Source: a virus
Lineage: Duplodnaviria; Heunggongvirae; Uroviricota; Caudoviricetes
Strand: one strand, 5' to 3'
Virus record (IMG/VR): IMGVR_UViG_2548876950_000009
DNA: 6,293 bases
In this document: piece by piece, positions 2,476 to 3,032 of the stretch
How positions within the stretch are numbered: the stretch's first letter is position 1
Layout: each line of letters opens with the position of its first letter
Notes under the pieces: model-generated
The model's database searches: none
Told to the model about the DNA's origin: nothing
Seen by the model: the letters and a program-made list of their open reading frames with translations, nothing else
Made by a program: the position numbers and the translations under genes

Positions 2476-2874
2476 GCCAAAGCGGCGAACAAAATCAGCC
2501 CGGTCAGTGAGTCACCCATCGACCCCTTCGGGGCGACCGGGCTGTCACATGACCTTGCTGATGAAGATCTGAATCCCGTCACTATCGTCCAGAACTTCGC
2601 CAATATGTCCGATCCGATGAAAGAGCTGGAAGCAGCGATTGAATCGGGACGCTTTCATCATGACGGCAATCCCATCATGACCTGGTGTATCGGCAATGTG
2701 GTCGGCAAAAACATGCCTGGTAACGATGATTTAGTGAAGCCCGTCAAGGAGCAGGCGGAAAACAAAATCGATGGTGCGGTTGCACTGATTATGACGATCG
2801 GTCGGGCAATGCTCAAAGAACCTGGCGATTTCCTCTCATCTCTTGATCCGGACGATGATCTCTTAATTCTATGA
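2476..2874 (+). pseudogene. terminase large subunit C-terminal nuclease segment, in the same frame immediately after the internal TAG
   Basis: Frame 1 stays open from 2476 to TGA 2872-2874 (track ORF 2605..2874 is part of this). It encodes the conserved C-terminal motifs [11 protein letters not shown] and [13 protein letters not shown]. Both pieces are frame 1 (1153 and 2605 are each 1 mod 3), so this is a nonsense codon, not a frameshift. Confidence 0.6.
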
Positions 2875-3032
2875 AATCACTAATTGCTGATGTTATCGGG
2901 CTGACTGGTTTTGGCCTGCTTACGTGCGGAGTTTACCTGCAGTTTGGCATGGCTCCGGCTCTGATTTTGTCCGGTGCTTTACTGCTGGTGGGTGCACTGG
3001 TTATGGTCAGAAGGGGGACGCGTGCTGCTTGA
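2871..3032 (+). CDS. small hypothetical membrane protein (53 aa, two predicted TM helices), not in the supplied ORF track
   Basis: ATG 2871 overlaps the terL TGA (ATGA). Translation is [53 protein letters not shown], two hydrophobic stretches and a basic tail. Stop TGA 3030-3032 overlaps the proposed portal start. No SD; translation would depend on coupling. Confidence 0.35.
2984..2991 (+). other. Chi octamer GCTGGTGG
   Basis: Exact match to the E. coli RecBCD Chi sequence on the + strand, in the TerL-portal intergenic region. Confidence 0.4.

Follow-up and report, generated by a model that had tools for sequence, protein, structure and literature searches.

We analyzed a 6,293-nucleotide (nt) stretch of viral DNA (IMG/VR record IMGVR_UViG_2548876950_000009), referred to below at its full length as the window, and focused on a small open reading frame (ORF) that lies between terL, the gene for the large terminase subunit, and the gene for the portal protein. 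The window is the packaging and head module of an SfV-like enterobacterial prophage. It encodes, in order, an HNH endonuclease, a P27-family small terminase, TerL, the portal, an HK97-type protease and the major capsid protein. Its DNA is 97-99% identical to that of Shigella phage SfV and to prophages in ~256 of 5,426 complete E. coli genomes.

The small gene as an object was already known. RefSeq annotates it, an existing PHROG includes it, and genes in the analogous position have been labeled 'membrane protein' since the annotations of ST64B and SfII. Comparison of related loci adds a probable correction of the portal start in the SfV reference record, and it traces part of the C-terminal conservation of the peptide to the ribosome-binding site of the portal gene. 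The comparison also places a membrane hairpin of ~50 amino acids among the most positionally conserved accessory genes of the packaging module that has an HNH endonuclease, a P27 terminase and an HK97 portal. The interest that remains is whether head assembly or packaging of the HK97 type has a membrane-linked step.

A small gene between terL and the portal gene

The small ORF begins with ATG at 2871-2873, has 53 sense codons, and ends with TGA at 3030-3032. Its start overlaps the stop codon of terL (TGA, 2872-2874) in the sequence ATGA, and 147 nt separate the terL stop (2874) from the portal GTG (3022). The coordinates, the number of codons, the overlap with terL and the size of the gap all agree with an earlier description made from the letters of the window (the original prediction). 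That description also had the TGA of the small ORF overlapping the GTG of the portal gene. The TGA does not touch the GTG codon; the part that stands is that the small ORF and the portal gene share 11 nt (3022-3032). The features that matter here are as follows.

1153-2874, + strand: terL, disrupted by an in-frame TAG (2473-2475) that was made by a 12-nt deletion
about 2795-2871, + strand: last ~25 codons of terL, a variable C-terminal tail, inherited with the small ORF and the portal gene
2871-3032, + strand: small ORF, 53 codons plus stop; predicted inner-membrane helical hairpin protein; identical to WP_015364398.1; member of phrog_7105
2871-2874, + strand: ATGA, start of the small ORF overlapping the terL stop; putative site of termination-reinitiation coupling; no upstream Shine-Dalgarno sequence; kept in 83/83 close loci
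2874-2945, + strand: predicted helix 1, residues 2-25, with signature residues D7, G10, G13, G20, Y22, L23 and F25 (AlphaFold2 with 60 sequences, column profile)
2946-2948, + strand: turn residue G26, probably in a short periplasmic turn; near-invariant, 57/60 (AlphaFold2)
2949-3014, + strand: predicted helix 2, residues 27-48, with A30, L31, the invariant G35, and A42 (AlphaFold2, column profile)
3009-3018, + strand: portal Shine-Dalgarno sequence AGAAGGGGGA, inside small-ORF codons R47-R48-G49; invariant in 83/83 loci
3022-4248, + strand: portal gene (HK97 family), GTG start at 3022; 11-nt overlap with the small ORF

The length of the small ORF is no more than expected by chance: there are ~20 clearly spurious ORFs of 53 amino acids or more in the 6.3-kb window. 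We consider the ORF to be real because of its intact copies and the frame-specific pattern of substitutions in related loci. We compared 83 loci: 80 related loci from IMG/VR, phage SfV, E. coli EC1515, and the window. The ORF was intact in all 83, with 53 codons and no insertion or deletion. Among the 29 distinct nucleotide versions there were 63 variable sites, distributed 16, 12 and 35 over the first, second and third codon positions. The pooled Nei-Gojobori ratio of nonsynonymous to synonymous substitution rates (dN/dS) was 0.24 in the frame of the small ORF, compared to 1.0 and 2.5 in the other two frames. It was 0.19 for codons 1-45, which precede the part shared with the portal ribosome-binding site. 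In the same loci, flanking segments of terL and the portal gene had dN/dS of 0.05-0.10.

Judged by these comparisons, 2871-3032 is a genuine protein-coding gene of the SfV-like prophage. It is under purifying selection at the level of the protein, and that selection is ~2-4 times more relaxed than that on its essential neighbors. The claim of the original prediction that the interval is coding was thus borne out by the synonymous and nonsynonymous pattern in related prophages, and no locus of the 83 had the interval noncoding, disrupted in frame or absent. The gene is annotated in RefSeq genomes of E. coli by the Prokaryotic Genome Annotation Pipeline (PGAP) as the hypothetical protein WP_015364398.1, which is identical in sequence to the product encoded in the window and, in E. 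coli EC1515, is likewise encoded between terL and the portal gene. An RNA element in the gap between terL and the portal gene was ruled out; there was no match to Rfam at E ≤ 1 and the stability of the predicted fold was ordinary (z = -1.18).

The start of the portal gene and translational coupling

The portal gene starts at GTG 3022, within the small gene. This GTG and its Shine-Dalgarno sequence AGAAGGGGGA are invariant in 83/83 loci, and PGAP places the start of the portal at this downstream GTG. In the record for SfV (NC_003444), the portal gene is annotated from an upstream GTG (portal 2392-3666) and the small gene is not annotated. The portal frame is indeed open from the equivalent GTG in the window (2974), and if the portal started there, the interval would be part of the portal gene and the small ORF an out-of-frame artifact. 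We see next to no chance of this, and the comparative data refute it. The upstream GTG is missing in 39 of the 83 loci, and in 5 loci stop codons close the portal frame upstream of 3022. In addition, substitutions in the interval fit the frame of the small ORF (dN/dS 0.24) and not that of the portal gene (1.0). We conclude that the downstream GTG, the one chosen in the original prediction, is correct and that the SfV record probably places the start wrongly.

The ATGA overlap between terL and the small ORF, which had been proposed to couple their translation, was present in 83/83 close loci. An overlap of 4 nt with terL was also found in 5 of 6 distant homologues (described below) and in phages phi644-2, K312 and BoyNamedSue. 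There is no Shine-Dalgarno sequence upstream of the ATG of the small ORF in the window. Because the small ORF has no Shine-Dalgarno sequence of its own, translation is probably initiated by ribosomes that have just finished terL and then reinitiate. The small protein would then be made late, and probably at a low level, from the packaging and head operon, and ribosomes would be handed on from the small gene to the portal gene.

The 3' end of the small gene has a second role. All lineages examined have the portal Shine-Dalgarno sequence within the final codons of the small gene. In the window, residues R47-R48-G49 are encoded by AGAAGGGGG. In the family of YmfR, a protein in the same position in other prophages (see below), the invariant 'GG' at the C-terminus coincides with the GGAGG of the portal site (SfII, ~2527-2541). 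Because the portal Shine-Dalgarno sequence lies there, the conserved 'RRG' in the window family and 'GG' in the YmfR family look like constraints at the level of nucleotides.

The product is predicted to be a hairpin in the inner membrane

The small protein matched phrog_7105 over its full length (E 1.4e-21; residues 1-52 of the 52-position profile) and, more weakly, phrog_502, a 'membrane protein' family (E 3e-5). The family to which it belongs, phrog_7105 or WP_015364398.1, has no recorded function, and nothing distinguishes the copy in the window. There was no meaningful match in scans of Pfam (none at E ≤ 10), NCBIfam or PADLOC (0 families at E ≤ 1).

We searched 1.84 billion cluster representatives exhaustively with a profile of the family (clusters at 50% identity; cutoff E ≤ 1e-3). 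This yielded 141 clusters, nearly all of them proteins of 46-60 amino acids that aligned end to end. We aligned 60 of these clusters, which have 30-70% identity to the protein from the window. In this alignment, G20 and G35 are invariant and G13 and G26 are nearly so (G26 in 57 of 60), and there is a strong preference for D or E at position 7, Y22, L23, F or Y at position 25, A30, L31 and A42. The small residues are mirrored about the center of the protein: G10, G13 and G20 pair with A45, A42 and G35, respectively (i + j = 55). We infer that this is the pattern expected for two antiparallel helices that pack through glycine and alanine faces.

Structure prediction points to the same arrangement. 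With the 60-sequence alignment, AlphaFold2 gave helices at residues 2-25 and 27-48 with a break at G26 (mean predicted local distance difference test score 88.3; predicted template modeling score 0.61). With an alignment of 11 sequences, it gave one continuous long helix. We set this second model aside; the deeper alignment gives a hairpin, and a hydrophobic stretch of 44 residues is about twice the thickness of a bilayer. Tallies of hydropathy and charge for the protein from the window give two hydrophobic helices followed by the basic tail RRGTRAA, so that these tallies and the model agree with the two helices and basic C-terminus of the original prediction. Across the family, the net charge is +1.7 for the C-terminal tail and 0 for both the loop and the N-terminal tail. 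Because the C-terminal tail is basic, the positive-inside rule implies that the protein is a two-helix hairpin of the inner membrane with both termini in the cytoplasm (N-in/C-in) and a very short periplasmic turn.

Other identities for the protein fared poorly. A lipoprotein or a signal peptide was rejected, since 'LLTC' matches a lipobox poorly, just 2 of 60 family members have C19, and the family conserves helix 2. We also rejected kinship with the F-ATPase c subunit or the pinholin S21; these two-helix proteins, included as controls, gave no score against the hidden Markov model (HMM) of the window family. Foldseek searches with the hairpin model found nothing at E ≤ 0.001 in the PDB or BFVD, and a profile search of PDB sequences found no relative. 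Such structure searches are uninformative, as expected for a hairpin.

Conservation of position

The small gene lies between terL and the portal gene in all 83 close loci, in 6 of 6 distant homologues, and at 11 loci in representative genomes. The six distant homologues are 31-58% identical to the protein from the window and come from Morganella, Mannheimia and Vibrio genomes, two metagenomic contigs, and one genome pair. In each of them, the small gene is between genes for TerL (PF03354 and PF20441) and the portal (PF04860), in the shared order HNH, Terminase_4, TerL, small gene, portal, protease, capsid. One of these loci departs in its protease, which is of the S49 type, and in its portal, which is larger. 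In five of the six, the small gene begins within terL, 4 nt from its end. The 11 loci in GTDB representative genomes, found in a scan with exact patterns only, have the same arrangement and are from Atlantibacter, Kluyvera, Kosakonia, Rouxiella, Citrobacter and Symbiopectobacterium purcellii, the last with five copies. The five terL-hairpin-portal copies of S. purcellii (CP189882) have identical match statistics (terL 35% and portal 84% relative to the window type), which suggests a prophage or element that has multiplied.

We also examined the slot between terL and the portal gene in a sample of phages chosen by similarity of TerL alone, with these results.

Slot holds a hairpin ORF: Burkholderia phi644-2 (gp3), Vibrio H8, Vibrio K312, Gordonia BoyNamedSue (gp3)
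Slot is empty: HK97, Acinetobacter AbIPP1, Caulobacter TMCBR2, Methylophilaceae P19250A, Staphylococcus PHB22a, Paenibacillus Fern
Slot holds unrelated genes: Moraxella Mcat23, Streptococcus Javan122

The original prediction had considered a small membrane protein not to be a standard component of a head-assembly module. This did not hold. A small ORF for a membrane hairpin fills the slot in many head modules of the HNH/P27-terminase/HK97 type, and such proteins are already cataloged as WP_015364398.1, phrog_7105, YmfR, Sb3 and the SfII_03 'membrane protein'.

Two of the phages have slots of separate interest. In Vibrio phage H8 (3507-3713), the annotation of gene H8_0047 (49 amino acids, GTG 3564) seems to leave out the N-terminus. 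Read from the in-frame ATG at 3507, the gene encodes a protein of 68 amino acids that has a complete first hydrophobic helix and matches phrog_4810 at 2e-20. In Moraxella phage Mcat23 (3573-4335), the two ORFs in the slot resemble the halves of a DNA methyltransferase, with a DPPY motif in the first and a C-terminal piece in the second. The pair may be an inserted gene that is frameshifted or split.

The small gene is inherited with the portal gene

We found that the hairpin gene, the portal gene and the sequence for the C-terminal tail of TerL are inherited together as one block, apart from the body of TerL. This conclusion is based on the switch between two phage types, on correlations across loci, and on mosaic loci. 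The TerL proteins of SfV and SfII are essentially identical for ~550 residues; then the last ~25 residues, the hairpin gene and the portal (27% identical) all switch. In other phages, the C-terminal tail of TerL is the end that docks on the portal.

We compared each protein with its counterpart of the window type at the 91 loci with a complete set of the three genes. Percent identity of the small protein correlated more strongly with that of the portal (r = 0.95) than with that of TerL (r = 0.83). Every locus in which the genes were discordant points the same way, with the small protein going with the portal. The identities at these loci are as follows.

Symbiopectobacterium: TerL 35%, small protein 66%, portal 84%
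Kosakonia: TerL 58%, small protein 72%, portal 89%
Three distant loci: TerL 58-71%, small protein 35-44%, portal 23-34%

The mosaic junction itself is sharp. It is at ~2795 in the window (terL codon ~551). The two phage types have almost the same terL as far as the junction, and from there on the SfV type and the SfII/ST64B/e14 type differ in the tail of TerL, in the hairpin gene, and in the whole head module.

Relation to YmfR and to other hairpin families

In SfII, in ST64B and in the cryptic prophage e14 of E. coli K-12, the slot holds SfII_03, Sb3 and YmfR, a two-helix protein of 60 amino acids (phrog_502) that is called a 'membrane protein' in two of these records. These proteins resemble that from the window in several ways. 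Their genes occupy the slot between a nearly identical terL and a portal gene, they are similar in size, they have a hydrophobic architecture of two helices, and the portal Shine-Dalgarno sequence is in their last codons. In contrast, they have a YPP loop where the window family has FGxA, their genes are 11 nt from terL and have their own Shine-Dalgarno sequence instead of the ATGA overlap, and the portal with which they are paired is only 27% identical to that of the window type. They also form a separate sequence family (hhalign E 0.007, probability 5%).

Several comparisons bear on whether these families share an origin. The HMM of the window family scored the hairpins of K312, H8, phi644-2 (gp3) and YmfR above 2,000 of 2,000 composition-matched shuffles. 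For YmfR the score was 17.6 bits, above all 2000 shuffles, and hydrophobic composition could inflate such scores. Some proteins bridge the families. Gp3 of phi644-2 matched both phrog_502 (2e-14) and phrog_7105 (2e-7), and the hairpin of Vibrio H8 matched phrog_7105 (4e-6) in addition to phrog_4810. Gp3 of BoyNamedSue matched phrog_4810 (6e-18). From these matches it is likely that the hairpins of phrog_7105, phrog_502 and phrog_4810 form a single superfamily.

A broader proposal is that the terL-portal hairpins of these three families and their relatives form a single ancient superfamily, whose members anchor the portal to the membrane or nucleate it there in HK97-type phages of both Proteobacteria and Actinobacteria. 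We regard this as doubtful. If it is true, initiation of head assembly or packaging in association with the membrane, so far documented for T4, would be widespread by way of an overlooked protein of ~50 amino acids.

No functional study turned up in literature searches that covered YmfR, small membrane proteins encoded between the genes for terminase and portal, ST64B and SfV, and families of small phage genes. In e14 (E. coli K-12-derived MGY, 2999-3181), ymfR is intact despite the annotation of terL and the portal gene as truncated pseudogenes. This may be due to chance, for so small a target, or to retention.

Possible functions of the small protein

We propose that the small protein is an accessory factor of the portal and head module that acts at the cytoplasmic membrane, and that it most plausibly tethers or nucleates assembly of the portal or prohead, or packaging. 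We give this reading a probability of roughly 0.55. As a working hypothesis for the mechanism, the hairpin would sit in the inner membrane with both termini inside, and there it would tether or nucleate portal or prohead assembly, or packaging, in the manner in which gp40 of T4 acts on gp20. In T4, assembly of the portal initiator, gp20, is membrane-bound and has been linked to gp40, a membrane-associated factor encoded by the phage (PMC9958956). The likeness to gp40 is one of function only; no homology is claimed for the small protein.

Several points weigh against this reading. Only ~7 residues at each end of the hairpin would face the cytoplasm, leaving little surface for binding the portal or TerL. 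The most conserved positions are glycines within the membrane, and these fit a purely membrane-directed activity equally well. Co-inheritance with the portal gene may merely reflect recombination that is favored inside the conserved body of terL. Part of the C-terminal conservation of the small protein is imposed by the ribosome-binding site of the portal gene, and the shallower AlphaFold2 alignment did not give a hairpin. In addition, the small gene appears to be dispensable in many related phages. Because the slot is empty in HK97, AbIPP1, TMCBR2, PHB22a and Fern, the small gene would not be needed for the core mechanism. HK97-type proheads are not known to assemble on membranes, and in T4, gene 40 is presumably not adjacent to the genes for terminase and portal.

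The main rival is that the small protein is an effector that acts on the membrane or on a membrane protein of the host (for example, in exclusion of superinfecting DNA, in tuning of lysis timing or membrane potential, or in counter-defense against a system that works at the membrane), expressed late or in a leaky manner from the prophage, and that its position is historical. The intramembrane location of the most conserved residues (G13, G20, G35) and the tiny soluble tails are consistent with such a role, as are the dispensability of the gene in many related phages and a dN/dS that is 2-4 times that of the neighboring essential genes. In PHROGs, moreover, the category given to the sister family phrog_502 is 'moron, auxiliary metabolic gene and host takeover: membrane protein'. 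Nonetheless, we consider an effector of this kind the less likely reading, and much of the evidence against it also bears on the suggestion in the original prediction that the gene is a moron or an accessory factor. There is no promoter-like site on the + strand and no terminator-like site in 2400-3400, and the small gene overlaps both of its neighbors, with translation coupled at both ends, to terL and to the portal gene. The G+C content of the small gene is 0.50, no different from that of its flanks (0.46-0.55). The gene is not polymorphic for presence: it is present and intact in 83/83 loci that have this type of portal, and is absent only in distant lineages. The gene keeps strictly to one position in Enterobacterales, Vibrio and Pasteurellaceae alike, related families occupy the slot in Burkholderia and Gordonia phages, and it is inherited together with the portal gene. 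Thus, of the two suggestions, a moron is disfavored by the missing promoter and terminator, the composition, the coupling on both sides and the conservation of position across bacterial orders, and an accessory factor fits better. The superinfection-exclusion morons of the HK97 gp15 type are also small phage proteins of the inner membrane; the small gene, unlike such morons, is without a promoter or terminator of its own.

The small protein has transmembrane helices and a charged C-terminus, as do class II holins and pinholins such as S21, which are also small phage proteins of the inner membrane with two transmembrane helices. These properties are holin-like but not specific. The small gene, unlike those for such holins, is outside the lysis cassette. 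Related elements have complete lysis cassettes elsewhere, with lysozyme, Rz/LysC and holin Pfam families upstream of the HNH gene. The small protein itself matched no holin family of Pfam at E ≤ 10, the PHROGs that it did match are not holin families, and no defense or exclusion model of PADLOC was hit at E ≤ 1.

Two other explanations seem much less probable. In one, only the act of translation matters: ribosomes would be relayed from the terL stop to the portal start and would unfold the portal ribosome-binding site, and the peptide would have no function. What is seen is what a relay would look like: the small ORF opens with the ATGA overlap, every lineage has the Shine-Dalgarno sequence and start codon of the portal within the 3' end of the ORF, and the ORF has no Shine-Dalgarno sequence of its own in the window. 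We think it very unlikely that this is all, given the purifying selection on amino acids upstream of the overlap with the ribosome-binding site (dN/dS 0.19) and the retention of the glycine and aromatic signature and the hairpin architecture at 30-45% identity across 60 clusters. Also, phages without the small ORF join terL straight to the portal gene, indicating that a relay of 150 nt is not needed. In the other explanation, the small protein is a hydrophobic component of the virion that enters particles together with the portal or head and, once set free during infection, contributes to a channel for DNA in the inner membrane. Ejection proteins with hydrophobic helices are known in other phages, and co-inheritance with the portal would fit. 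Even so, this is at least as improbable as the relay. A hydrophobic hairpin of 44 residues that lacks any soluble domain would not easily stay in solution within a head, the coupled translation is likely to be at a low level (there being no Shine-Dalgarno sequence), and no solved phage structure holds a relative of the small protein. In myoviruses and siphoviruses, this task is usually ascribed to the tape-measure and tail-tip proteins.

An in-frame stop codon in terL

The terL gene in the window is interrupted by TAG at 2473-2475. Judged against relatives with an intact terL, the stop codon was made by a 12-nt deletion (ACATCCTCGAAG) that changed TAT CGC TAC ATC CTC GAA GAG GCC to TAT CGC TAG GCC. 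The deletion was found in 0 of 1,212 full-length matches among complete E. coli genomes. It truncates TerL at 440 of 577 amino acids, so that translation of terL stops 396 nt upstream of the ATGA. The original prediction had pointed out that this would also affect the small ORF if translation of the two is coupled. That is reasonable: reinitiation at the ATGA would be lost. With its TerL truncated, this particular prophage is probably defective in packaging in any case.

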